DNA of 34,822 nucleotides, from NCBI GenBank assembly GCA_016285415.1, contig JAEEQU010000001.1:1-34822 (forward strand), read 5' to 3'. The notes under the pieces are model-generated. The model was not told where the DNA came from. It searched no databases and was given only the letters and a program-made list of their open reading frames with translations. This document shows positions 14,027-33,630 of this stretch, piece by piece. Within the stretch, counting starts at the first letter, position 1; each line of letters starts with the position of its first letter. The translations under genes were made by a program, and so were the position numbers. The stretch comes from Alphaproteobacteria bacterium. Lineage in GTDB: Bacteria; Pseudomonadota; Alphaproteobacteria; Rs-D84.

Positions 14027-15346
14027 TTACTGGCGCAAGTAATTCCGCAACGCATCCCCCGTCAATGGCGCATCGTCCATATCTTCTGGATTAACAATAG
14101 ACACTATACGCGGCGACATAAACACAACCAATTCTGCGAATGGACTAATCAATGTTTCTGGGGTTGTTACAAACGAATGCGTTGGAATACCAATTATAAT
14201 ATAATTGTCACCAACACTGGACGGAATCGCAAACGAAGAAAGTTCACCATTGCTTGTCCGCAATACAATTTTCGCATCTATTTTTTTACGACCCGCAAAA
14301 TCGCTATACTTCGCAGATGCACCAATAATCAGGTCTGTTTCCAATCTTTCTTCTTTACTGCATTGTCCAATATCAAACCGTGATTGCCACCCATCCGGAA
14401 CAACAAAATGCCCCTGAGATACCAATACCACATTTGCCTGTTGCGACAAAAATTCCTGTAATGTTTTGGTGTTTATTTCCGGACCAACAACCAATGTACG
14501 TCCCACAACCCCCGGAATAGACATCTTGATATTCTTTTCCCCAAACGCTGGTAACAAATTCATCCAAATAATTGGATTATCTGTCCGTGGATACACACGA
14601 TAAACATCCATATCCCATGACATCACATATTTCTTGGAAGATATATCGGAAATTATACGTGTAACCTCGCGTTCTGTTTGAAAATTACCCTCAAATATCA
14701 ATGTATTATCCGCCCAATCAACAATCAGATTACGCACATCCGCACCATGCATCGCATCAAGCAACGCCATAACAATTGTATCATTATGTGGCATCTTGAT
14801 TAACCATTTTGCGCGATTAAATAATTTGATTTCGCCAAGCGCCGCATCATATGTGTAATAAACACGTCCCAAACGCGCAATTAAATCTATGGCGTCTGAC
14901 AAATTACCTGATGCAATTGACCCAGAAACCTTTTCTATAACGTGCTCTTGCTCCACAACGGCGATATCTGTTCCTTCTAATAATTTATTTAATGCGGATG
15001 GAACACTTTGCTTTTTAAATTCATAATCTGACACCGTTAAATCAGAAGGTAATTCATCCCCTTTATCTACGCGCACCATTTCTATTTTTTCTTCGGGTAC
15101 AACAGATACAACCGACTGATTATTCCAATCTACCGTGCAACGACGTGGTAATTCCACCGAAAAGCGACGCGCCGTATCTGTGGTTAATGCCGCTTTCTTG
15201 GGAAAAATAGGCACAGAATTTTCATCTATGACTAAATTATCTATTACCTGAACGGTATCATATTCAATTGTATTGGTTTCATTTGGTCCTGTGGCGCACC
15301 CAAACATCACCAATGCAATTAAAACAAAATTTAATAATTTCTTCAT
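14027..15346 (-). CDS. Outer-membrane lipoprotein with secretin-like N-domain and C-terminal features
   Basis: Lipobox LVMFGC. NolW/secretin-N-like block LLDAMHGADVRNLIVDWADNTLIFEGNFQTEREVTRIISDI. YVMSWDMDVYRVY resembles the start of a secretin domain, and the C-terminal AELVVFMSPRIV resembles the conserved secretin end. The ATG at 15346 has a GGGTGA RBS. Confidence 0.45.
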   Translation of the reverse strand: MKKLLNFVLIALVMFGCATGPNETNTIEYDTVQVIDNLVIDENSVPIFPKKAALTTDTARRFSVELPRRCTVDWNNQSVVSVVPEEKIEMVRVDKGDELPSDLTVSDYEFKKQSVPSALNKLLEGTDIAVVEQEHVIEKVSGSIASGNLSDAIDLIARLGRVYYTYDAALGEIKLFNRAKWLIKMPHNDTIVMALLDAMHGADVRNLIVDWADNTLIFEGNFQTEREVTRIISDISSKKYVMSWDMDVYRVYPRTDNPIIWMNLLPAFGEKNIKMSIPGVVGRTLVVGPEINTKTLQEFLSQQANVVLVSQGHFVVPDGWQSRFDIGQCSKEERLETDLIIGASAKYSDFAGRKKIDAKIVLRTSNGELSSFAIPSSVGDNYIIIGIPTHSFVTTPETLISPFAELVVFMSPRIVSIVNPEDMDDAPLTGDALRNYLRQ

Positions 15347-15361
15347 GTTTATCACCCGTTG

Positions 15362-16202: not shown

Positions 16203-16904
16203 ATGAAACGTAACCTGTGGTTTTGGCTTTATTTTATTGTGGCTATATTGCTTGCAATATACTTTGCAACACGAATCATTATGACATTTATGGGATATGG
16301 CCCAATTGCCAAGGTTAAAAATATACATATTTCTGCCGATACAGAAACCCAGGATTTAACCGCAATTGCGGCCGCAACGGGAATTTCATCGGGAACAAAT
16401 ACACATTCGGTCAATCTTGAATTGGTAAATGCACGATTGCTTACAACACCATGGGTTCGCGAATCGGCGGTTCGGCGATTACCGAACGGAAATTTATCTG
16501 TAAAAATACACCTTTATCGTGCGGTTGCGGCATTGAACGAAGGTAATTATTATTACCCACTTTCCGCCGATGGCAAAAAAATTCAAAAGCCATCCGAAGA
16601 CAAGGCACCGGGAACTGTTGTTTTTCGCGGAAATGTTCCAAAAGATATTGGTGATATAACCAAGGCGGCAACGAATCTTATCAAAGACCTTGATTATCTT
16701 GAATTCATAGATAACCGCCGGTGGAATCTTGTTACAAACGGGGGCATTACGGTAATGTTGCCAGAAAAGGAAATTTCAGATAAAAACAAAGATCCAATCG
16801 CAGCAATCGCGTCTTTGGTGGTGTTGAATAATAAATACAATATTTTAAAGAAAGATATCAAAGTAATAGATATGCGGGATACCGCACGGATTTTGATAAA
16901 ATGA
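16203..16904 (+). CDS. ftsQ: Cell division protein FtsQ
   Basis: N-terminal TM helix, a POTRA-like region with LLTTPWVRESAVRRLPNGNLSVKI, and an ATGA overlap with ftsA. Confidence 0.85.
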   Translation: MKRNLWFWLYFIVAILLAIYFATRIIMTFMGYGPIAKVKNIHISADTETQDLTAIAAATGISSGTNTHSVNLELVNARLLTTPWVRESAVRRLPNGNLSVKIHLYRAVAALNEGNYYYPLSADGKKIQKPSEDKAPGTVVFRGNVPKDIGDITKAATNLIKDLDYLEFIDNRRWNLVTNGGITVMLPEKEISDKNKDPIAAIASLVVLNNKYNILKKDIKVIDMRDTARILIK

Positions 16905-18673
16905 ATATGATAGATTCGGCATTTTTATGTCTTGATATTGGCACATGTGGTGTCCGTGGAATTGCGCACCGCGTACGTAATGCAACCATTGACCGCAGCG
17001 CATATTATTCCATAGATAATTTTGATACGGTTTTTGCATTAAAATCTGTTATTGATGAATTGGAACAAAAAATCGGCATGCGATTTGATAATGCATATAT
17101 AACTGGGAATTTTGGACCATCATTATTTAAACTATCACCACAAAATACGGTATGGCAAAACGAACATAAAATTACACCTGGGGATATAAAATCCCAGATT
17201 GGTAAAATTGATATTCCAGACGGTTTTTATTCAATGCATATTATACCGTTGCGTTATGATACACCAAAAATACGGAATATGTTATCACCTATTGGCCACA
17301 CCGACAGACAGTTAGTATCCGCATTTTCCGCGTTATGTTATGACAGTGAATATATGAGCAAGATTCAAGAATTGTTACGACATGCACATATTCAACCCGC
17401 CGCATTTTATGCCCCACACTTTCTATTACACAGCGCATTTCATGATGTCAAAGAACCAATGATGTTTATTGATATGGGTGCCGAAAATACGACTGTATCC
17501 ATTTGGACCCCACGCGGTTTGGTATGGTACGATGCGCCTGCAATTGGCGGAAATGATTTAACCAGCACAATATCTACGAACCTGGCAATATCATTTTCTG
17601 AATCCGAACGCATAAAACGCAATGTTGCAAACCTTAAATCAAATGATATGGCACGGTTTAGCCCGGCGGACAGCGCATACGCATTTTCCTGTGCGGATGT
17701 TAATGATATTGTAATTCCATTTTACACTGATTTAATTCAACAAATAAAAACAGACGTCACACCACAAATTGAAAAGTATAAACCAACACGAATTATTTTG
17801 ACTGGTGGTGGCGCAAATATTGATGGTTTGGTTGATATGTTGTCGGATGCATTTGACTTGCCAATAAATGTTGGAACCCAAGATGTTGTCGTGCGTGCAT
17901 TGGCCGACTATATATGGCATATCCAAGAACCGCACCGCAAGAAATACTTGGCGCGCATCGCCCGTATTCAACGCTTTACCGATAAATTATCCAATATTTT
18001 CCATATTAAAAAGCGCAAACAAAAACAAAAAATTGTTCCAATTATGCCAAGCACTTTGTGCTTTGATATGAAGGTTCCCGAAACATATACAATGTTTAAA
18101 TCTGCGGGAATAAATGCAATTCATGTTGATATAATGGATGGTCTGTATGTTGATACCATTGCTGGCGGCCTTGATGAATTGCGTCAAATTCGCGCATCAT
18201 GGGATGGGCATCTGCATGTTCATTTAATGACCGAGGCACCAACCGAATGGGCACGTGGCACAATTGATGCCGGTGCCGACACAATCATACTGTCCACTAA
18301 TACGGCGGGGCTTCGCGTTGCAGTTCAAAATGTGCGTGCGGCCAAGCGACGCGTTGGCATTGCCCTTAATCCCGATTCGCCGATATCATTATTAAAAACC
18401 ATTTTACGTGATTTGGACGAAGTAATGATTATGGCGGTTCAGCCCGGCGCGGCGGGCCAGAAATTTGATGCAAGTGTTTTAAAGAAAATAACCGCACTTG
18501 CCGCAACACGTAAAAAATATGGATTAAAGTTTGTAATATCTGTTGATGGTGGAATTACCGATGATGTTGCAAAACTATGCTGGAACGCGGGCGCCGATGT
18601 TTTGGTCAGTGGTTCATACCTTGGCAAAGCAACTGATTTTCCATTGGCGGTTCAATCATTATTAAAAAAATAA
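16901..18673 (+). CDS. ftsA: FtsA (residues ~1-370) fused in frame to a ribulose-phosphate 3-epimerase domain (residues ~382-590)
   Basis: FtsA motifs: LCLDIGTCGVRG, HIIPLRYD, FIDMGAENTTVSIW, GGNDLTST, IILTGGGANIDGL. Rpe motifs: MPSTLCFDM, HVDIMDG, HVHLMT, MAVQPGAAGQ, SVDGG, VSGS. There is no stop codon between the two halves, and I see no SD before the internal ATG at 18044. Confidence 0.8.
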   Translation: MNMIDSAFLCLDIGTCGVRGIAHRVRNATIDRSAYYSIDNFDTVFALKSVIDELEQKIGMRFDNAYITGNFGPSLFKLSPQNTVWQNEHKITPGDIKSQIGKIDIPDGFYSMHIIPLRYDTPKIRNMLSPIGHTDRQLVSAFSALCYDSEYMSKIQELLRHAHIQPAAFYAPHFLLHSAFHDVKEPMMFIDMGAENTTVSIWTPRGLVWYDAPAIGGNDLTSTISTNLAISFSESERIKRNVANLKSNDMARFSPADSAYAFSCADVNDIVIPFYTDLIQQIKTDVTPQIEKYKPTRIILTGGGANIDGLVDMLSDAFDLPINVGTQDVVVRALADYIWHIQEPHRKKYLARIARIQRFTDKLSNIFHIKKRKQKQKIVPIMPSTLCFDMKVPETYTMFKSAGINAIHVDIMDGLYVDTIAGGLDELRQIRASWDGHLHVHLMTEAPTEWARGTIDAGADTIILSTNTAGLRVAVQNVRAAKRRVGIALNPDSPISLLKTILRDLDEVMIMAVQPGAAGQKFDASVLKKITALAATRKKYGLKFVISVDGGITDDVAKLCWNAGADVLVSGSYLGKATDFPLAVQSLLKK

Positions 18674-21128: not shown

Positions 21129-23606
21129 ATGGCTATTAAACCACATCATAAACATAGAATTATTTGGGCAATACTTATTTTTATTGCTGTTATATTTATT
21201 GGGTTATTAATACTGCCTGCATGTATAAACTTGAACAAAATGCGCGACCGTTTGCAAGAGGCTATTTATACACAAACGGGGGTGGTAACAGATATCAAGG
21301 GTGATATAACATTTGGTATTTTTGGTCATCTGACTCTTGTCGCGCACGAGGTTGATACCCTGCACGGTCACACAAGAAAACTTGCTGTAAAAATACCATT
21401 TTCTGGATTGTTTGACCCTTTTAATACAGACCTTAATGGCGAAATTACCGCGACTGGTGCCGACATAACCCTTACAACACTGGAAACATTAAACCTTAAA
21501 TACGACATGATTGTTCACGATTCTGTTATACGATTCATGAACAAGGATTATTACATCATAGATGGGGTATTTAAGGGTGGAACCTTTAACGGTCTCGTTC
21601 GTACTGGCCAGCATAAATATGACATACGATTTAATGCCAAAGAATTCACAATTAAAAATAAAAACGTAGATTTGAATATTCACGGTGAATTATATCCATC
21701 CGGTGCAGCCAGTGGAACCATGGAAATATCCACAACAAAGATAAATTCTTGGTTTGAATTTGATGAGCCAAAATTAACAAGACGTGTCACGCTTTCCACT
21801 AATTTTTGGTGGGATGGGGGATACGGTTTTCGCTTTTTTGATATGACCGCTAATAGTGTTCATGGAAACATAGACCTTGATCCAACTGGCTGGACAACAA
21901 TAAATTTATTTTCGGACGATACTGATTTTGATTTTTCTTTTTTGGCACATCCCACAAGTCTACTTAAAGACACACGTATGAACGTAGATTTTTCTGGAAA
22001 TTTAAAATTTGAAAATCGGGATTTGAATCATGTCAAACTTGATATCGTTGGCACCGAACAATATATTCAGGTAAATAAAGTTGTCGCCGACGAAACAACC
22101 TTTACTGGTGGCACCGTAGATAAAAATGGTGCACACGAAGTCATGATAAAAACAATTATTGACGGCACCCCTGTTCAATGTATGTTTTCTGGCACCCTAG
22201 ATAAATGGGAATGCCAAAAATTTAAATATGGAATACTTAGCGGGACAATAAAGTCCGATAAAAAATCTGTCACCGCAACCATTTCATCAAATTCAAGTAT
22301 CACGCTTGCGGAACTTGGTGATTACACGTCACGCCTTGGCAACAAGAATTTAAATATCAAATTCAAATTTGCAAATATGGGCGGTCGGTTAATTTCTGAT
22401 AAACGCGGAACAAGTATACAATACGATTATGTATATGGTCAAAATCTGCGCTGGGCGAACCCACACATAAAATTACTGCCTGAATTTATGATGCAAGATG
22501 TAGGCAATATTATATGGACAAATAAAACAATGTCGTTCATCCCAAATTCTAATGAATGGTCATTAACCTTGCAAGATAACTTCTTTTATTTGACTGGCGA
22601 CAGTATAAAAAAATGGTTTCCAAAATTTGATTTACGCGCAGTAAATGATTTTGCATATGTTGCATCTGGATTTTATAATGACAAAGGCGACATTTCTGAT
22701 TTAACGGTAAAAATTGGTGGTCATGTATTCACCGGCAGTTCAAATGCAAAATCTATAACATTGCACACCGATAATTTAACACTTGATACTTTCTTAAATA
22801 AAAATTTCTTTGACCACTATGAAGAAATGGAATTTTTGGCGAATGCCCCCATACTTATTCCATTTGATTTTAACCGCAATATATACATTAGTGCCGACAC
22901 ATTATCATACGATCAATATACCTACAAGAACTTTGTCTATGCGTTGAAATCAGGCACACAGACATTTTCTATTACCGATAGTTCACGTGGCAATTTATTG
23001 GCAACAATCATACGTGAACATTCTGACTATGATATATTCTTGCAGTTAAATCGTTTCGTTATAAATGGCGAATTATTAACCAAAAGTTTCCCATTAAATA
23101 TATCTGACACAATGATAACTGCAGAAATGCAATTACACACATCTGGTCATATCGCACACGACATTTGGTACAATATGGCAGGTGACATGGATTTAACATT
23201 TGAAGGTGGATATTTGGACGGCATTGGATTAGATGAATTTTATGCAAACGCCACGAACCTATCACGACTTAATGTAGAAGATTATATAATACGCGCACTG
23301 GAAAGTGGCGATACCAGAATTAAAAATATGCGCGTCATTGGAAAATATGAACATGGCAATTTTGAAACCACAACACCATTTACAATTTCTGTTCGCCACG
23401 CAGATATTATTGGCGCATTAAATATTACCGATAATTTAATGACCAGCCAATTAAGTATATCTATGCGCGCAACTGCGCCAGACCCTGTTACTGTATCTGT
23501 TGCAATTGCACCAAATAATTCTCGCAGTTATTCCCTTGGCGAAATCACACAATATTTTGACCCGCCATTTATGCGTGAATTTATTAAAACACATGATAAG
23601 TTTTAA
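21129..23606 (+). CDS. AsmA-family outer-membrane biogenesis protein-like
   Basis: N-terminal anchor helix followed by an AsmA-like start (LQEAIYTQTGVVTDIKGDITFGIFGHLTLVAHEV). It is 825 aa and looks beta-rich. The assignment rests on architecture only. Confidence 0.55.
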   Translation: MAIKPHHKHRIIWAILIFIAVIFIGLLILPACINLNKMRDRLQEAIYTQTGVVTDIKGDITFGIFGHLTLVAHEVDTLHGHTRKLAVKIPFSGLFDPFNTDLNGEITATGADITLTTLETLNLKYDMIVHDSVIRFMNKDYYIIDGVFKGGTFNGLVRTGQHKYDIRFNAKEFTIKNKNVDLNIHGELYPSGAASGTMEISTTKINSWFEFDEPKLTRRVTLSTNFWWDGGYGFRFFDMTANSVHGNIDLDPTGWTTINLFSDDTDFDFSFLAHPTSLLKDTRMNVDFSGNLKFENRDLNHVKLDIVGTEQYIQVNKVVADETTFTGGTVDKNGAHEVMIKTIIDGTPVQCMFSGTLDKWECQKFKYGILSGTIKSDKKSVTATISSNSSITLAELGDYTSRLGNKNLNIKFKFANMGGRLISDKRGTSIQYDYVYGQNLRWANPHIKLLPEFMMQDVGNIIWTNKTMSFIPNSNEWSLTLQDNFFYLTGDSIKKWFPKFDLRAVNDFAYVASGFYNDKGDISDLTVKIGGHVFTGSSNAKSITLHTDNLTLDTFLNKNFFDHYEEMEFLANAPILIPFDFNRNIYISADTLSYDQYTYKNFVYALKSGTQTFSITDSSRGNLLATIIREHSDYDIFLQLNRFVINGELLTKSFPLNISDTMITAEMQLHTSGHIAHDIWYNMAGDMDLTFEGGYLDGIGLDEFYANATNLSRLNVEDYIIRALESGDTRIKNMRVIGKYEHGNFETTTPFTISVRHADIIGALNITDNLMTSQLSISMRATAPDPVTVSVAIAPNNSRSYSLGEITQYFDPPFMREFIKTHDKF

Positions 23607-23658: not shown

Positions 23659-25428
23659 TTAGTTCTTTTTACGAACCTGAATATGAACATCACGCAGTTG
23701 CTGTTCGGTAACCTCGTTCGGTGACCCCATCAGCAAGTCCTGACCACGTTGGTTCGCGGGGAACGCAACGATTTCACGCAAACTGTCACCATTGCCCAAT
23801 ATTTCCGAAACCACGCGTTCAATACCAAATGCACAACCGCCGTGTGGTGGCGCACCATATTGGAACGACGTGTACAGACCCGAGAAGTTCTTTTCCACCG
23901 CTTCTATTGGGTATCCCGCAATTTCAAAGCATTTTTTCATAACTTCTGGGTTATAATTACGCAAACCGCCACTGCAGATTTCAATACCGTTTAATACCAT
24001 ATCAAACTGCGCTGCCTTAATCGTAAATGGATCACGCGTAGACAGTTCTTCCAATGTCGCCAACGGATACGAGAACGGGTTATGTGTGAACATTGGCGCG
24101 CCACCACGTTCTTCATCGGGTTCAAAGAACGGGAAATTATCAACCCAACAGAACGCAAAATCACGCGGTTTAACCAATCCCAAATCCGCACCCAATTTAT
24201 TACGCAATTTACCCGCCGCCTTGGACGCGGTGTCTACATTATCACAGATAAAGAACAATGATGCATTGTCACCGGCAATTTCGTGCAATTTTGCAATGCG
24301 TTCTGCATCCAATTTTTTGGCAACTGGTCCTTTGGCTTCATCCGCGAAAACAATATACCCAAGTCCGCCCAGTCCCAGTTCTTTAACCGCATATTCACCA
24401 AGTTTATCAAACCATGAACGCGGTTTGTCCGCACTGTTTGGTGCCGGAATTGCACGCACAACCGAACCATTTTCAACTGCACTTGCAAAGATTCCAAAAT
24501 CAGATCCGCGGAATATTTCGGTTACATCGCTAATCAAAATTGGATTACGCAAATCTGGTTTATCAGATCCATATTTCAACATTGCATCATCAAATGAAAT
24601 ATGTGGAATTTCAGGATATACATTTGCATCTGGGGCAAATGTTTTCACCATTTCTGGAATAACCGCTTCGCCGACCGCCTGAATATCTGGCAAATCAACA
24701 AACGACATTTCCAAGTCCAATTGATAAAATTCCAACAACCGATCCGCACGCAAATCTTCGTCACGAAAACATGGTGCGATTTGGAAATAGCGATCAAACC
24801 CGGCCACCTGTAATAACTGTTTAAACATTTGTGGGGCCTGGGGCAATGCATAGAATTTTCCATGATGCAAACGCGATGGCACCAAGAAACTGCGCGCACC
24901 TTCGGGTGAATCCGCGGTAAGCAATGGTGTCTGGAATTCCGAAAATCCCAAATCCCACATTTTATCGCGCAACCATTTCATCATTTTATTACGCATCAAA
25001 ATATTGTAATGCAATTTTTCACGACGCAAATCCAAGAATCTGAATTTATAGCGCAATTCTTCACTGGTGTCATCATCGCCAAATACCTGGAAAGGTAAAA
25101 CTTCGGCAGATGTTAAAACATCCCATTTTTCAACACTTATTTCAATTTCACCGGTTGGAATTTTTTCGTTTATTTGGGACGCATCACGCGCAACAACCTT
25201 ACCAACAACCTGCAGAACAGATTCTGGACGCACGCGTTCCAAATCGTCGTTTCCACCGTCAATAACAATCTGGGTAATTCCGTAATTATCGCGCAAGTCA
25301 ATAAACAACAACGACCCATGGTCACGTTTACGATGCACCCATCCCGACAGGGTTACAGTTTCACCAACATTTTTCGCGGTCAGTTCCCCGCAAGTATGTG
25401 TTCTATACTTTGATTTCAGTGATAACAT
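23659..25428 (-). CDS. aspS: Aspartyl-tRNA synthetase (bacterial type)
   Basis: 589 aa with an OB-fold N-terminus, class II motifs (FRDEDLRADR, GGLRNY, GFGIERV-like CAFGIERV) and the bacterial insertion domain. Confidence 0.95.
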   Translation of the reverse strand: MLSLKSKYRTHTCGELTAKNVGETVTLSGWVHRKRDHGSLLFIDLRDNYGITQIVIDGGNDDLERVRPESVLQVVGKVVARDASQINEKIPTGEIEISVEKWDVLTSAEVLPFQVFGDDDTSEELRYKFRFLDLRREKLHYNILMRNKMMKWLRDKMWDLGFSEFQTPLLTADSPEGARSFLVPSRLHHGKFYALPQAPQMFKQLLQVAGFDRYFQIAPCFRDEDLRADRLLEFYQLDLEMSFVDLPDIQAVGEAVIPEMVKTFAPDANVYPEIPHISFDDAMLKYGSDKPDLRNPILISDVTEIFRGSDFGIFASAVENGSVVRAIPAPNSADKPRSWFDKLGEYAVKELGLGGLGYIVFADEAKGPVAKKLDAERIAKLHEIAGDNASLFFICDNVDTASKAAGKLRNKLGADLGLVKPRDFAFCWVDNFPFFEPDEERGGAPMFTHNPFSYPLATLEELSTRDPFTIKAAQFDMVLNGIEICSGGLRNYNPEVMKKCFEIAGYPIEAVEKNFSGLYTSFQYGAPPHGGCAFGIERVVSEILGNGDSLREIVAFPANQRGQDLLMGSPNEVTEQQLRDVHIQVRKKN

Positions 25429-25615
25429 TTTTTCGCCTTTTCTCTTTGGGCGACAAAAACAGATTGGTCTTTGGCACCCATTTGGTTAAACATATTTCGG
25501 GGCGCATAAAATCAGCTATGCGCGGTGCCACCCGAATTTATCACTTTTTTGCTTTTGGATTTGGCTCCGTGGTTGTTGGTCACATCAACGCCGCCACCAA
25601 TAAACTGTTTGAGAT
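25429..25615 (-). promoter_or_regulatory. T-box-like leader RNA of aspS
   Basis: On the minus strand, GGGUGGCACCGCG (25533-25521) matches the T-box core GGGUGGNACCGCG exactly. The fold is CGGG / bulge UGGCACC / GCGCAUA-loop-UAUGCGC / CCCG (25534-25498). An upstream hairpin loop exposes GAU and GAC. Confidence 0.65.
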
Positions 25616-25644
25616 ATTTTATAACGATTTTTTTCAATTTGCAA
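25616..25644 (-). promoter_or_regulatory. Sigma70-like promoter of the aspS leader
   Basis: Minus strand: TTGCAA (25644-25639), 17 nt, TAAAAT (25621-25616). Confidence 0.5.
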
Positions 25645-25685
25645 GGTTATTGTAATTTTACGCCCTGCCCCGCAATTTTGCGCAT

Positions 25686-25711
25686 AAAAAAACCGGCATG
25701 CGCCGGTTTTT
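25686..25711 (-). terminator. Intrinsic terminator after the DUF805 gene
   Basis: AAAAAAA-CCGGC-atgc-GCCGG-TTTTT immediately after the stop at 25713. Confidence 0.75.
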
Positions 25712-25712
25712 A

Positions 25713-26129
25713 TTATTTACGTGCTGCACCGAACCTGTTTTTCTTAGCATCTCCCTCACTTGCCATGAACACCAACAGTACAATCCAGCCAACTATTGGC
25801 AACAACGCCCACAACACATTCCAATTTGACCGATTTGTATCGTGCAAACGACGCGCCGCCAAACAGAACCCCGGCACCAATGTCGCGCACCACCATACCA
25901 TAGACACAAGCCAATCAAGCGATTTAAAGAATGTATATATCGCATCAGAATTATAAATAATTCCACAAAATGTTCCCACAAAATTCAAGCAAAACGATAT
26001 AACAAACGGGATAAGGAAATAGTAAAACAAAACCACCCACCAATATTCACTGCGCCGTGCGCGACCCCATCCAGTATAATCAACCCAAAAATTCTTTAAT
26101 GCAAACCCCAGTGTTCCAGTATTAGCCAT
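25713..26129 (-). CDS. DUF805-family inner membrane protein
   Basis: GRARRSEYWW and RRLHDTNRSNW signatures, four TM helices, AGGAG RBS. Confidence 0.85.
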   Translation of the reverse strand: MANTGTLGFALKNFWVDYTGWGRARRSEYWWVVLFYYFLIPFVISFCLNFVGTFCGIIYNSDAIYTFFKSLDWLVSMVWWCATLVPGFCLAARRLHDTNRSNWNVLWALLPIVGWIVLLVFMASEGDAKKNRFGAARK

Positions 26130-29643: not shown

Positions 29644-29808
29644 TTATCTTCCCCCTTTTTCCATGCAATAATACACAATTTCAAAAAAAGTTTTAATAAA
29701 AATTTTACTTGCCACCAATGCCTTGATATATGGGTCAAAAAATGATATAATATTGGCTGGCGGGGTATGCCATATTTTACCCTTAATAAAGGAAAGGAAA
29801 CAGTAACA

Positions 29809-32800
29809 ATGTCAAAAATATATACCGAAGCAGAATTACAACATTTCTTGGATTTGTATGCCGATGACCTAACACGCATTGATGCAATTGCCACAGCGAC
29901 CGAGTTTTTAAACGATTTTGTAAAAGAAGAAGCGGATATTGAAGAAAGTGCATATAAAGAAAGTGATATTTTTGACAAAATCATCAAAACATTTTGCGGC
30001 ACCCCCCTACCAGACGGTGGCATAAAACTTAATGAACTGGGTGCCCAGGCGCTTGCGCGGTACGAATCAATTATTAATCGTGCTGCAACAATCGCGAACA
30101 AATCAGATCCAAACGATATTTACCAATTTACATCTGACCAAAATCAAATTATGTTTAATTTGGTAACATTGTCTGTATATCGTGACATGAAATTGGTTGA
30201 TCCGTCTGTTGATGCCAACAAAATGACACCCGGCCAAGTCGCAGATTTAATTGATTCCGTCAATTTAACCGATGATCAGCGCAAAGAATATTCCAACAGA
30301 TTCATTGACCTTATATTAAAAACACCAGATTTGTTTGAAAAAACGCCACCCAAGATATTAACAGATGCATACATTTTTGTACGCGAACAACTTATGGCGA
30401 ACCGAACCGACAAAGATTTGGAAAATCGGTTTAAAATCTTGGCCCAGCGCATAGATTTCCTTATAACTGGATTCGCACAAAAAATAAATTATTTTTATTC
30501 CGACCCGTCAAACATCGCAGATGTATGGGAAGGATATAACAAAATGTGCACGGTACGCAGGGCCGATTTGCGTATTACGAAACATGATAACGACGCAGAA
30601 AAGAAATACAAAGCAGATGTTGACAAGGCCGCACAGGAAACTGTGGAACGTTTGCGCGAAATCGTGGCAATGTATGAATATATGTGGAATTTAAAAGATT
30701 TAAAACCCGAAGACGCCGAAAAATTACAAAAACGCTGGCAAGAACTTTCAGACGCACTGCGGGGTGTTGAATTAACAGATGATATTCTTGCCACACTGGC
30801 ACAATATAAATTCTTGGATGAGAAAGGTGACCCCCTGCCCCAGTTCCTAGATAAAGATGGCAAACCGCAACTTGAATTTAAACCGGGGTATAAGTTAAAT
30901 CCAGATGGTCGGCTTTATCGCGTAATATCATTGGCAAAAACAGATGTCACCATGCAGAACGTCGGTGATTTGGCCACCGCCGTCAAAGATATGAATTTGT
31001 CAGAGGCACTGTCAGACCGTGTTCCATGGAAAGTTGCCGAAATATCACTTGTTGACCGTGCTGTCCAAGGTATAGAAGCAAATCCACATCGTATGCTAGA
31101 ACAAGACGAAGTGGATGCTCTGTGGCAAGAAATAGAAAAAGATGGGGGCAGTATTACTGATGCTGGATACCAGGCCGCCCTTGATGCCCAGGTTAATCAG
31201 GCCGGTGGTTTTGCTGGATTAATGGCGCAACATGTTGGACGTGATAAACCGGTTGTTATGCGTCCATTTGAATCTGTCCAAGATATTGATAAATTGGCGA
31301 AAACACGAACCGAAAAAATTGGTGCCGGGGAACGCAGACAGAAAATTGGTTTCTTTAAACGTATGTTAAAGAATTTCGGCGCCGCCGCGGTGTTTTCCGC
31401 CGGACTAACATTTATTGGCAAGGCAACTGGTATTGCATGGGCGGGCGCAGCAGTTGGAACCACACTTGGTATTGGTAACATGGTATACCAAGGTTTTAAA
31501 TGGCGTCGCGAACAGAAAAAACTTGGCAAACCAAAAGAACAATATGGCCTAAAGGCATATTTTTCTGATAAACGCAATTGGGGACCGGCGATTGCATCGG
31601 GTCTTGGGGTTGCGGCGGTAATTAGTATGGCAACTGGAAATCCAGAATTGGCCGCTGGGTTCGGTATTGGTGCAATGGCTGTTGGTGGTGGATCTGGGGC
31701 GGCAATGACATACAAAGATGCACTTGCCGCTGGTTATACACGTGGTCAGGCATTGGCGGGCGCATTGGGTGTTATGGGCGCAACCGTTGCCGGTGGTTTT
31801 GCGGGACGTGCGGCAATGAACGGTCTTGTCAATTATGTCAACACCAATACAGACAGTACACTGTTCCGCACCGAACACCAAATTGTAACTACACACGAAA
31901 CCACACAAAACCAATATCCTGATGGTTGGATAGAAGGTAATGAACATACACTTTCACAATGGGAAAGCCCACAAATGCTAGAGGCACATATAAATGGCCT
32001 AATGGACGCGGGGTTATCGCATGATGACGCGGTTCGTTATTTACTTGCATGGCATGATGTAACCGATCATAATTTGGGCGGTGGTTATTTTGATAGTATT
32101 GGCATGAATTACAGTGATGTTGCGGCATTACGCGGTTCAATAAACGGCACAATGATAAATCTTACCCCAGAATCCATGTCTGCATTTAACCACTTTAATG
32201 ATTATATATCTGGAACAAATACCGTAAGATATCCGGCGGGTTTATTCCAACCATATCATACACCAATCAGTCATGTTCTGCCCCCGAACGCAACATGGGA
32301 TGCAAATGGGATGCTGGTTCCGGGAAATGATGTTTATTCAACATGGGTTAACTGGGGTGGCGATGGTGTACAACACATACCTGTTATCACCACAGATGTT
32401 AGCAGTGTCTTTACCCCCAATGAACTGATGTTCCCAGCGGGTATCGGCACATTGGGCATTTATGAACCCCGTGTAATCCCCGCTGATTATTTATTACGTA
32501 TGCGTGAACGCACCGGCACAACTGCGGATCACATTGCACAACTGGCGAACGGTGGTAATGGTGGCAATACGGGCGATATGGGTAATACGGGAAATACTGG
32601 TGGTGCAGGTAATACAGGAACCGGTGGCGGAACACCAACACTACCAACTGGTACGGGAACTGGTGGCGGCACCGGTCCAAATCCAACCGATACGGGAACC
32701 GGTGGCGGTACTGGTTCAACCCCAACGGATACAGGAACCGGCAATGGAACTGATCCACAACCCAAAAAACGCGGTTTCTTTGGCAAATTAAAAGATGCCA

Positions 32801-33630
32801 CATACAAAGTTTTACAAACCGGCTATCACGGCTTACAAAGAATACAAAAAGGAGTAAACAAAATGAAAACAGACCACATCAACAATCAAACAGAACGCGA
32901 GCTTGCGCGTCTTGAAGGCGAAAGACAAAAATCCAAAACTTTGGCCGAATTAACTAGGGAACGTTTAGAAGCCTACAAAGACATGGATATTGAAAGCATC
33001 CATGAATCAACATTACGTGAATCCGCCGCATTGGCCGCACTAAACGAAAGTTTGAAAAAACGTTTGGGCGAAAGAAGCTTAAAATTATATGCGGCCTTGA
33101 AAGAAGCTGAAACCCGACAAGATGCAAAAGCAGCTGCAACAATGGCTGCAAGTATACTGGACTACCAGATATTAAAAGCCAAATTAGACGCAATTAAAGA
33201 CATGGGTGATGAAGCAACAGTAAAAGCACTACTTAAGTTAAAAAGAGACATTGAGAAATACGAACAACAATCAGAAATTGATTTAGACGTTGCACGTCAA
33301 AAAGGCCAAAACAAAGTCCAAAGTATCAAAGATGATGGTCGCATTGACCACGCCAGACATGGTGGCTGGTTAAAAAATCTGGCTCAACGAATCAAGGGAA
33401 TTGCTGATAAAACACAAGCCGAGGTCGAAGAAAGGGAGATTGAGACTCACCTTGCAGAACAACGTATGGAACGGGTCAAGACAGAATCTGCAATAGACAT
33501 ACTAAAAGCCGCAACAGAACAAATTGAAAAATTGATGGCAATCCATGAATTTACAGATCAACAAAAACAAGAACTTGCGGCATTGATTCTGCAAGAAGCA
33601 AAAGACAAAATCAAAGGACAAGGAAAATAA
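29809..33630 (+). CDS. Giant orphan protein (1273 aa): helical N-region, glycine-zipper TM cluster, globular region, Gly/Thr/Asn repeat, C-terminal coiled coil
   Basis: A continuous ORF. I chose the ATG at 29809 because AAGGAAAGGAAA lies upstream. There is no N-terminal signal peptide. TM-like segments are encoded at about 31348-31830, the repeat at 32551-32763, and a Lys/Glu/Ala/Leu heptad-like tail from about 32860. Confidence 0.75.
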   Translation: MSKIYTEAELQHFLDLYADDLTRIDAIATATEFLNDFVKEEADIEESAYKESDIFDKIIKTFCGTPLPDGGIKLNELGAQALARYESIINRAATIANKSDPNDIYQFTSDQNQIMFNLVTLSVYRDMKLVDPSVDANKMTPGQVADLIDSVNLTDDQRKEYSNRFIDLILKTPDLFEKTPPKILTDAYIFVREQLMANRTDKDLENRFKILAQRIDFLITGFAQKINYFYSDPSNIADVWEGYNKMCTVRRADLRITKHDNDAEKKYKADVDKAAQETVERLREIVAMYEYMWNLKDLKPEDAEKLQKRWQELSDALRGVELTDDILATLAQYKFLDEKGDPLPQFLDKDGKPQLEFKPGYKLNPDGRLYRVISLAKTDVTMQNVGDLATAVKDMNLSEALSDRVPWKVAEISLVDRAVQGIEANPHRMLEQDEVDALWQEIEKDGGSITDAGYQAALDAQVNQAGGFAGLMAQHVGRDKPVVMRPFESVQDIDKLAKTRTEKIGAGERRQKIGFFKRMLKNFGAAAVFSAGLTFIGKATGIAWAGAAVGTTLGIGNMVYQGFKWRREQKKLGKPKEQYGLKAYFSDKRNWGPAIASGLGVAAVISMATGNPELAAGFGIGAMAVGGGSGAAMTYKDALAAGYTRGQALAGALGVMGATVAGGFAGRAAMNGLVNYVNTNTDSTLFRTEHQIVTTHETTQNQYPDGWIEGNEHTLSQWESPQMLEAHINGLMDAGLSHDDAVRYLLAWHDVTDHNLGGGYFDSIGMNYSDVAALRGSINGTMINLTPESMSAFNHFNDYISGTNTVRYPAGLFQPYHTPISHVLPPNATWDANGMLVPGNDVYSTWVNWGGDGVQHIPVITTDVSSVFTPNELMFPAGIGTLGIYEPRVIPADYLLRMRERTGTTADHIAQLANGGNGGNTGDMGNTGNTGGAGNTGTGGGTPTLPTGTGTGGGTGPNPTDTGTGGGTGSTPTDTGTGNGTDPQPKKRGFFGKLKDATYKVLQTGYHGLQRIQKGVNKMKTDHINNQTERELARLEGERQKSKTLAELTRERLEAYKDMDIESIHESTLRESAALAALNESLKKRLGERSLKLYAALKEAETRQDAKAAATMAASILDYQILKAKLDAIKDMGDEATVKALLKLKRDIEKYEQQSEIDLDVARQKGQNKVQSIKDDGRIDHARHGGWLKNLAQRIKGIADKTQAEVEEREIETHLAEQRMERVKTESAIDILKAATEQIEKLMAIHEFTDQQKQELAALILQEAKDKIKGQGK
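32551..32763 (+). repeat. In-frame imperfect tandem repeat encoding GGNGGNTGDMGNTGNTGGAGNTGTGGGTPTLPTGTGTGGGTGPNPTDTGTGGGTGSTPTDTGTGNGTDPQP
   Basis: Repeated GGT/GGC/ACN/AAT codon units. PTDTGTGGGTG occurs twice, with variants. Confidence 0.8.

Follow-up and report, generated by a model that had tools for sequence, protein, structure and literature searches.

We analysed a window of 34,822 nucleotides, the whole of the stretch introduced above, from contig JAEEQU010000001.1 of an Alphaproteobacteria bacterium. The subject of our study is the leader of aspS (approximately positions 25611–25429, minus strand). From comparison of sequences, we consider this leader to be a tRNA-sensing T-box, with a probability of about 0.75. 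The regulated gene encodes a bacterial-type aspartyl-tRNA synthetase (AspRS) of 589 amino acids (23659–25428, minus strand, with the ATG beginning at 25428; NCBIfam NF001750 aspartate--tRNA ligase, 713 bits). In a structure comparison, bacterial AspRS enzymes were the nearest solved structures to the aspS product. T-boxes are generally regarded as a Gram-positive device. In the window, a T-box core, GGGUGGCACCGCG, is located at 25533–25521 on the minus strand, ~100 nt upstream of aspS, and matches the consensus exactly. An earlier, sequence-only reading of this DNA had proposed a minimal leader of the T-box type in an alphaproteobacterium. That proposal is supported by conservation, by covariation and by the anatomy of the element.

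The element is conserved upstream of aspS and its helices covary

The T-box core is found ~100 nt before aspS in all 19 of the closest genomes. These are from Candidatus Enterousia-like Alphaproteobacteria of the gut and rumen, and encode AspRS proteins 74–91% identical to that of the window. Consistent with the earlier reading, alignment of 31 sequences (see below) revealed compensatory changes in both helices, A1 and A2, of the proposed fold. The core was not found in L020 (AspRS 68% identical) or in 60 further alphaproteobacterial aspS leaders (61 in total, L020–L080). Scanning metagenomes for the linker-plus-core pattern returned at least 120 loci, including at least 12 further aspS leaders of the minimal type. 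Among the matches listed in that scan, all 12 minimal loci were aspS leaders with UGGC and the rest were ordinary T-boxes.

Together, the window, its relatives and the metagenomes provided 32 copies of the element. Thirty-one of these, all distinct, were long enough to align (alignment A2, not to be confused with helix A2). Four helices were proposed by eye on the alignment and RNAalifold independently predicted the same four. Standard base pairs accounted for 88.7% of cells, compared with 73.2% when 3' partners were shuffled and 34–54% when registers were slid by 1–3 columns. The covariation score was 0.507. This was not reached in any of 500 shuffles, which scored 0.207, and slid registers did not exceed 0.149. 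Sixteen pairs had changes on both sides, versus 13.6 after shuffling and 6–10 in slid registers.

A covariance model, R1, was built from alignment A2 and searched over the window and loci L001–L099. The window scored 92.9 bits (25611–25493) and exactly one copy was identified per Enterousia-like locus. Ordinary T-boxes matched R1 weakly (26–37 bits). No match was obtained in the other alphaproteobacterial aspS leaders of this search set.

Stem I places a codon-like triplet above a K-turn

An ultrashort Stem I occupies 25557–25598 of the minus strand. Alignment A2 identifies a lower stem (GG 25598–25597 with CC 25558–25557), a C-stem (GGC 25592–25590 with GCC 25565–25563) and an NC stem (GUG 25583–25581 with CAC 25571–25569). 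The C-stem and NC stem were both also predicted by RNAalifold. Each of the 6 core pairs of the C-stem showed changes on both sides, and the NC stem occurs as GUG/CAC, GCG/CGC and AUG/CAU.

Stem I contains a K-turn. In alignment A2, and in minus-strand coordinates of the window, this comprises a GUU bulge (25589–25587), the sheared pairs G25586.A25566 and A25585.G25567, and a variable non-Watson-Crick pair, U25584.G25568. No change is seen in the U-G-A or in the A that opposes it, and 29 of the 31 aligned sequences also have the opposing G. The 3-nt bulge ends in U and the 3b.3n pair varies (U.G, C.C, C.A or A.A). Judged by its sequence, this arrangement is that of a textbook K-turn. The sequence-only reading could identify no K-turn and had instead drawn a hairpin between UUGGU (25600–25596) and ACCAA (25580–25576). 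These two segments are present and complementary. However, their pairing is conserved in no relative, and is replaced by the C-stem, K-turn and NC stem.

The NC stem is closed by a 9-nt terminal specifier loop, ACCAACAAC (25572–25580, minus strand). Columns 37–40 of alignment A2, within this loop, read (G/A)-A-C-A. The A, C and A are invariant in the 31 sequences. Hence, the predicted specifier of the window is AAC (25577–25575), an Asn codon, and is followed by the conserved purine A25574. The sequence (G/A)AC-A has the form expected of a specifier in the T-box family, namely a codon with C at the third position and then a purine. Across the 32 copies, the triplet is GAC (Asp) in 24 and AAC (Asn) in eight (the window, L001, L005, L011, L085, L110, L137 and L150). 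The AAC copies occupy at least three separate places on a rough AspRS tree.

The sole variable base of the specifier would pair with tRNA position 36. This position is the lone anticodon difference between tRNA-Asp (GUC, C36) and tRNA-Asn (GUU, U36). Within the sequences themselves, this G/A toggle is in our view the best evidence for a loop that is read by an anticodon. By homology, the copy in the window would read tRNA-Asn and most of its relatives would read tRNA-Asp. Asp specifiers assigned previously do not stand. Thus, the proposed GAC (25581–25579) overlaps the stem drawn in the same reading, the proposed GAU (25586–25584) is the G-A-U of the K-turn, and homology gives AAC.

The base of Stem I also matches that of canonical T-boxes. 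In L115, the equivalent sequence is GC-UUU-GA-U-AGGG...AUC-A-CCCU-G-GA-GC. In the aspS T-boxes of L159 and L122 it is GAA-GAC-A-CUCA-G-GA-G, and the spacing between specifier and K-turn is as in our element. The layout further matches that of an ultrashort T-box in L180.

The discriminator fold is conserved and Stem III is absent

The core forms part of a T-box discriminator (antisequestrator) at 25496–25536 on the minus strand, evident from sequence, covariation and RNAalifold. The string CGGG-UGGCACC-GCGCAUA-loop-UAUGCGC-CCCG is present at 25534–25498 exactly as previously described. The fold proposed around it is borne out by covariation and RNAalifold with one revision: helix A1 has 6 bp rather than 4 (UUCGGG 25536–25531 with CCCGAA 25501–25496). 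This is followed by a 7-nt bulge, UGGCACC (25530–25524), and by helix A2 of 7 bp (GCGCAUA 25523–25517 with UAUGCGC 25508–25502). Among the 31 sequences, A1 has three covarying pairs (UA/GC/CG, CG/UA and AU/CG/GC). In helix A2, the outer pairs are invariant and the inner pairs covary. The UGGCACC bulge is invariant across the alignment.

The variable base of UGGN is C in 32 of 32 copies. G73 is an identity element of tRNA-Asp and likewise of tRNA-Asn (PMC9976931). Hence, UGGC would fit either tRNA. The sequence-only reading had argued that this C suits the G73 of tRNA-Asp; the match to G73 holds, but it is common to both tRNAs and the specifier in the window is AAC rather than an Asp codon. The canonical Firmicute-type aspS T-boxes of L159 and L122 combine a GAC specifier with a UGGU bulge, which could pair with G73 only by a G.U wobble. 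Hence, the rule relating N to the discriminator base is not strict for Asp T-boxes.

Stem I and the antisequestrator are joined by an A-rich linker (25537–25556, minus strand). In the Rfam model alignment, the linker ends in the discriminator purine string, AAGUG-AU-AA (25546–25538), at the expected place of Stem III. The corresponding motif, RRRxG-Stem III-AA, is described in PMC7583486. RF00230 deletes Stem III from its consensus, AAGuG-(Stem III)-AAaUa, when aligned with AAGUG/AU/AAAUUC, and gives the discriminator a high posterior probability. Thus, in this alignment, the element has no Stem III and the purine string is kept. We considered whether the absence of Stem III was itself a novelty and rejected this, because high-scoring canonical T-boxes share it. 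The canonical L115 T-boxes, at 105–125 bits, align in the identical Stem III-less manner.

The leader is predicted to control translation initiation

Folding of the leaders identified a conserved hairpin, b:c, at 25447–25480 on the minus strand (5' strand UGGGUG-C-CAAAGAC, 3' strand GUUUUUG-U-CGCCCA). Of 29 leaders, 28 are predicted to form it. Pairing between a sequence's own strands averaged -12.7 kcal/mol, versus -10.7 kcal/mol with the strands of other sequences, and none of 2000 permutations reached the observed mean. The 5' strand contains GGUGCCA (25478–25472). This heptamer is complementary to the T-box bulge and resembles both the GCCA end of a tRNA and a Shine-Dalgarno (SD) sequence. 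The C-rich 3' strand is able to pair with the SD region. We regard the SD region (GGCGA, 25437–25433), with the aspS start codon (25428–25426), as the proposed target of sequestration (25426–25438, minus strand). The earlier reading had listed GGUGCCA, a U-run at 25459–25455 and a UCGCC/GGCGA pairing near the SD, and all of these are present. It had also linked GGUGCCA to the bulge, in agreement with the conservation of the heptamer and its participation in predicted alternative folds. The sole leader not predicted to form b:c is that of L014. This leader is without b and c and has the SD directly after A1', which is the classical layout of a translational T-box (sequestrator).

Four segments of the leader are mutually complementary. 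Segment a is the 3' strand of the antisequestrator, GCGCCCC. Segment b is GGGUGCC(A/G)AAA and segment c is UUUUUGCNCCC. Segment d, the SD region, is GGGACCAAAA-AUG, and in the window is GGCGAAAAAA-AUG. Each leader was folded twice, either with the antisequestrator enforced (ON) or with the guanines of A1 blocked (OFF). Mean predicted energies of the two states were nearly equal, at -30.0 kcal/mol for ON and -29.0 kcal/mol for OFF. Predicted accessibility of the SD was 0.73 in the ON state versus 0.50 in the OFF state, and was greater in the ON state in 26 of 29 leaders. For the window, the minimum free energy OFF fold pairs UUUUUG-UCGCC with GGCGA-AAAAA. In the ON fold, the SD is unpaired.

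Two other modes of control were considered and rejected. No intrinsic terminator is apparent; the one U-run belongs to b:c, as its 3' arm, and no GC hairpin is followed by U-rich sequence. The sole terminator-like site, at 25688–25711, belongs to the DUF805 gene upstream of the leader. Attenuation by a leader peptide was rejected since the AUG codons of the leader give only AUG-UGA and an out-of-frame open reading frame (ORF), and indels that are not multiples of three preclude conservation of an ORF. The sequence-only reading had likewise reported no directly competing terminator and had favoured translational control. Because there is no terminator, ON and OFF energies are nearly equal and OFF folds occlude the SD, control is most likely translational. 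Folding models thus make a translational output of the aspS leader probable, a claim we make with less assurance than that of a T-box.

We propose the following mechanism. Uncharged tRNA would be held at two points, by its anticodon on the loop triplet and by its 3' G73-C-C-A on the UGGC of the bulge. The ligand would be tRNA-Asn(GUU) in the window, where the triplet is AAC, and tRNA-Asp(GUC) in most relatives, where it is GAC. Bridging of the two sites by tRNA would stabilise the A1/A2 antisequestrator, allowing b:c to form, leaving the SD and AUG open and increasing production of AspRS. With the tRNA charged or absent, A1 would open and the freed strands would re-pair to block initiation. 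This could occur by any of three routes: the CCCC of A1' may pair with the SD; the bulge may pair with GGUGCCA, so freeing the C-rich strand of the hairpin to pair with the SD; or the bulge may pair with the SD directly. Covariation does not separate the direct (A1':SD) from the relayed (bulge:b with c:SD) OFF state, since the T-box strands are invariant.

The loop of b:c (25466–25461 in the window, with equivalents in L004–L019, L170 and L190) has a recurrent sequence, (A/U)UCC(A/G/U), complementary to the SD core GGGA. A contact between this loop and the SD could be envisaged, and the models proposed here leave the motif unaccounted for.

The triplet predicts a non-discriminating synthetase

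In sequence terms, the GAC/AAC toggle predicts that AspRS of this lineage is non-discriminating (ND). Not only tRNA-Asp but also tRNA-Asn is a substrate of an ND AspRS, and hence both AAC and GAC would suit aspS. The N-terminal motif of the AspRS encoded in the window is RDHGS. The His is shared with the mycobacterial Asp/Asn ligase of structure 4rmf, and the E. coli enzyme has Leu. Work by Bernard et al. in 2006 is reportedly the basis for the weight given to this His position. We view the RDHGS His as a small hint that agrees with an ND AspRS. The AspRS proteins of L159 and L122 have RDLGG, with Leu, unlike that of the window. Neither gatCAB nor asnS was found within the 34.8-kb window.

Evidence against a translational T-box, and alternative explanations

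The core features of a T-box are present in the sequence (the bulge fold, the specifier with its purine, the K-turn and the purine string) and the accessory ones are not (distal Stem I, Stem II and a score above the Rfam threshold). Several observations weigh against our interpretation and are gathered here. RF00230, searched against a 341-nt region, scored 27.3 bits (E = 2e-4) against a gathering score of 93, and only the discriminator aligned well. Hence, the covariance search suggested in the sequence-only reading yielded no match at the level of the family. In calibration, genuine T-boxes were also missed at this threshold (62 bits for L179 and 46, or more exactly 45.8, for L180). The low score of our element results from the absence of distal Stem I and of Stem II and IIA/B, rather than from a poor discriminator.

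These absences are themselves a difficulty. Neither alignment nor RNAalifold revealed a distal Stem I, with its AG bulge and distal loop; Stem I ends in the 9-nt loop atop a 3-bp NC stem. Promoter-like sites lie just upstream and hence there is no room for further 5' structure. Known translational T-boxes are likewise without the distal Stem I platform (PMC7583486). Stem II, the IIA/B pseudoknot and the F-box CCGUUA were not found in the alignment, where only ~16–25 nt of A-rich linker connect Stem I to the purine string. Those T-boxes with a short Stem I that have been studied depend on Stem II, and tRNA is bound poorly by an antiterminator on its own (PMC7583486). The AAC:GUU duplex is a weak one of 3 bp.

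Further points concern the genomic setting and the models. In the window, in L001–L099 and among the metagenome matches listed, the minimal element was found before aspS only, and neither before other genes nor with other discriminator bases. No gene for tRNA-Asp or tRNA-Asn was found in the window or in the relatives' loci, which contain only tRNA-Thr, tRNA-Met and tRNA-Gln. At a second position, reportedly also a marker of ND enzymes, AspRS of the window has Ser; ND enzymes have Gly and E. coli has Lys. When the SD window was shuffled, an ON–OFF difference in accessibility of 0.14 persisted, versus 0.23 for the real sequences, and so the effect on the SD is modest and partly generic. Finally, the predicted OFF folds are of three types rather than one: a:d with b:c nested; bulge:b with c:d, as predicted for the window; and bulge:d.

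The last two points could be accommodated by a genuine tRNA-sensing T-box with an output other than SD sequestration. Such an output might be Rho-dependent termination or pausing, or mRNA stability, with b:c acting as a processing or stability element. Most known T-boxes are transcriptional (PMC7583486). In L012 and L175, moreover, at most 12 nt separate the leader from a preceding tRNA-Thr gene, which implies RNA processing at least there. However, the interval from the discriminator to the AUG has no GC hairpin with a U-run behind it, the U-run there being the 3' arm of a hairpin, and L014 has its SD directly after A1'. Furthermore, in every group the sequences flanking the SD are complementary to the C-rich strands, and they resemble the 5' strand of the hairpin (GGGUGCCAAAA versus GGGACCAAAA). 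We consider an output of this kind unlikely, and SD sequestration the more probable one.

Loss of all auxiliary modules for contacting tRNA, the need for Stem II in those short-Stem I T-boxes that have been studied (PMC7583486) and the restriction of the element to one gene in the DNA searched would also be expected of a T-box-derived leader that no longer senses tRNA. A leader of this type might be kept for binding of AspRS or of a K-turn-binding protein, in autoregulation, or for mRNA stability. Yet the parts that would touch tRNA are the most conserved, with an invariant UGGCACC bulge and an invariant specifier A-C-A. The purine string, which latches onto the tRNA/bulge duplex, is retained. 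In E. coli, threonyl-tRNA synthetase binds mimics of the anticodon arm in the thrS leader. The thrS operator resembles our element in being a structured leader by the SD of a synthetase gene, but it shows an anticodon and is bound by protein, whereas here a codon and an NCCA-binding bulge are found. An operator of this type, with an anticodon mimic bound by AspRS, was rejected; the loop, CUGACAA or CCAACAA, displays the codon GAC or AAC and not GUC or GUU. Moreover, the only variation in the specifier, G or A, is a switch between the two possible substrates of AspRS (PMC9976931). Loss of sensing thus appears improbable.

Finally, occurrence by chance of a 13-nt core in an AT-rich intergenic region might be argued from its single copy in the window and sub-threshold Rfam match, but is refuted: GGGTGGNACCGCG occurs once on the two strands of the 34.8-kb window, where 0.07 matches would be expected even with one mismatch allowed, and 31 other sequences have the element in the same place, with four of its helices showing compensatory changes.

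Comparison with known T-boxes

Known T-boxes take two forms. The first has a long Stem I that docks the tRNA elbow, either with Stem II or, in glyQS, without it. The second has a short Stem I and needs the S-turn of Stem II and a pseudoknot (PMC7583486). The discriminator is described as Stem III with A1 and A2 (PMC7583486). In the part of the literature searched, we found no description of a short Stem I combined with the absence of Stem II, pseudoknot and Stem III. Going by its sequence and within that literature, the element has the smallest T-box architecture described, in a new bacterial class.

The actinobacterial translational ileS T-boxes of Mycobacterium and Nocardia are similar in several respects ('class II' of TBDB; ultrashort Stem I, Sherwood et al. 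2015 as reviewed in PMC7583486). They too have a short Stem I without an elbow platform, a basal K-turn, a UGGN antisequestrator and an aminoacyl-tRNA synthetase gene downstream. Their output is SD sequestration and the same output is predicted here by modelling. However, the ileS T-boxes keep Stem II with its S-turn, the IIA/B pseudoknot and Stem III, whereas the alphaproteobacterial element is without all three. Our element also differs in its host, in its predicted ligand (tRNA-Asp or tRNA-Asn) and in having the extra b:c hairpin before the SD in all but one leader.

The glyQS T-boxes of Bacillus, Geobacillus and Oceanobacillus are the smallest studied. Like our element, they have no Stem II, a single-stranded linker from K-turn to discriminator, and the same base of Stem I (K-turn, 3-bp stem, codon and A). 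Conversely, they keep a long Stem I with interdigitated T-loops on the tRNA elbow, Stem III and transcription termination, none of which applies here. The glyQS duplex, GGC:GCC, has three G-C pairs (PMC7583486); in our element the duplex would be GAC:GUC or AAC:GUU, with no elbow contact. A streptococcal glyQS T-box (L089:9300–9433) is reported at the gathering threshold only as the SpR19 sRNA (RF02447, 102 bits). It appears that this sRNA family is a glyQS T-box leader.

The closest likeness in Stem I is to a transcriptional aspS T-box on a metagenome contig (L180:2273–2622, minus strand of the locus). Its ultrashort Stem I is near-identical, GCC-AUA-GA-U-CCAG-(CUGACA)-CUGG-G-GA-GGC, with GAC and A in the terminal loop. 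Hence, an ultrashort Stem I exists outside Actinobacteria. L180 also has the same bulge, UGGC, and a purine string (AAGUG...AA) that lacks Stem III. It differs in that it retains Stem II together with an F-box pseudoknot (CCGUUA), is equipped with a U-run terminator of the classical kind, and precedes a 447-aa archaeal-type AspRS-like gene. On sequence grounds, the L180 type may represent an ancestral or donor form.

Saad et al. reportedly described an Asn-responsive T-box over ND-aspS, gatCAB and asnB in Clostridium acetobutylicum. This would likewise be a T-box with an AAC specifier over an AspRS serving tRNA-Asn. However, it is said to be a full-size transcriptional T-box of the Firmicute type, whereas here a single nucleotide toggles between Asp and Asn among close relatives of one lineage.

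Taken as a whole, our observations suggest a composite model that we offer only tentatively. The leader may be the smallest natural T-box, of ~115 nt from transcription start to the end of the antisequestrator, capturing tRNA only via a 9-nt loop mounted on a K-turn and a discriminator without Stem III. One G/A change may have re-targeted it repeatedly between tRNA-Asp and tRNA-Asn, marking AspRS as non-discriminating. In its platform, a cis-encoded mimic of the acceptor end, GGUGCCA, may compete for the bulge and relay the outcome to the SD by a three-helix switch.

The only proteobacterial T-boxes in the literature searched are the leuA leaders of two Deltaproteobacteria (PMC2494555), and TBDB looked for translational T-boxes in Actinobacteria only (PMC7778990). 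In the part of the literature that we searched, no earlier description of a T-box in Alphaproteobacteria was found. A conserved alphaproteobacterial T-box would widen the distribution of these elements, and would do so among bacteria that have reduced genomes and synthesise no amino acids (PMC12306168). Annotation at the Rfam threshold misses such elements. The element has neither a long Stem I nor a short Stem I with Stem II, modules held to be alternative requirements for recognising the anticodon end. It would therefore provide a natural test of the minimum RNA needed to read both the identity and the charging of a tRNA, and a compact scaffold for engineering. Similarly, the GAC/AAC polymorphism would constitute a natural specificity-swap experiment and a predictor, from sequence only, of lineages using the AspRS/GatCAB route to Asn-tRNA-Asn.

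Promoter, neighbouring genes and host

A sigma-70-like promoter, TTGCAA with a 17-nt spacer and TAAAAT, lies at 25616–25644 on the minus strand. Found in a promoter scan and noted in the earlier reading (25644–25616), it is the sole promoter-like site within 25380–25780. Transcription would be expected to start at ~25609, at the 5' edge of the element. Comparable TTGCAA...TATAAT or TTGCAA...TAGAAT pairs are present shortly upstream of Stem I in relatives.

The DUF805 gene upstream of the leader has its own hairpin terminator at 25688–25711. This site, between the DUF805 gene and the aspS promoter, consists of a palindromic GC hairpin with an A-run on one side and a T-run on the other (AAAAACCGGCATGCGCCGGTTTTT), and is a possible terminator on either strand. 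It was the source of weak enterobacterial sRNA matches in an E-value scan. In L012 (2747–2935) and L175 (2206–2300), the tRNA-Thr(GGU) gene, whose end is at most 12 nt upstream of Stem I, has an encoded CCA, and no promoter-like sequence separates the two. In these loci, the aspS leader is probably co-transcribed with tRNA-Thr, its 5' end being made by 3' processing of the tRNA. In the window, unlike L012 and L175, tRNA-Thr and the aspS leader are separated by the DUF805 gene and its terminator.

Relatives of the AspRS place the window among uncultured Alphaproteobacteria of the gut and rumen, several of which are labelled Candidatus Enterousia. Genomes of the order Rs-D84 lineage are smaller than 1 Mb and encode no amino-acid biosynthesis (PMC12306168).

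Elsewhere in the window, a single ORF of 590 aa (16901–18673, plus strand) joins an FtsA/PilM-like actin-fold N-terminal part (residues ~36–330) to a complete ribulose-phosphate 3-epimerase (~380–587). The ORF reflects either an unusual fusion or a frameshift or start that was missed. Three ORFs, at 21129–23606 (plus strand, 825 aa), 29767–33630 (plus strand, 1287 aa) and 14027–15355 (minus strand, 442 aa), matched nothing in Pfam or NCBIfam at the thresholds used. Around them are envelope genes, encoding LolC/E, OmpA/Pal-like, YadA-anchor and PagL-like proteins.

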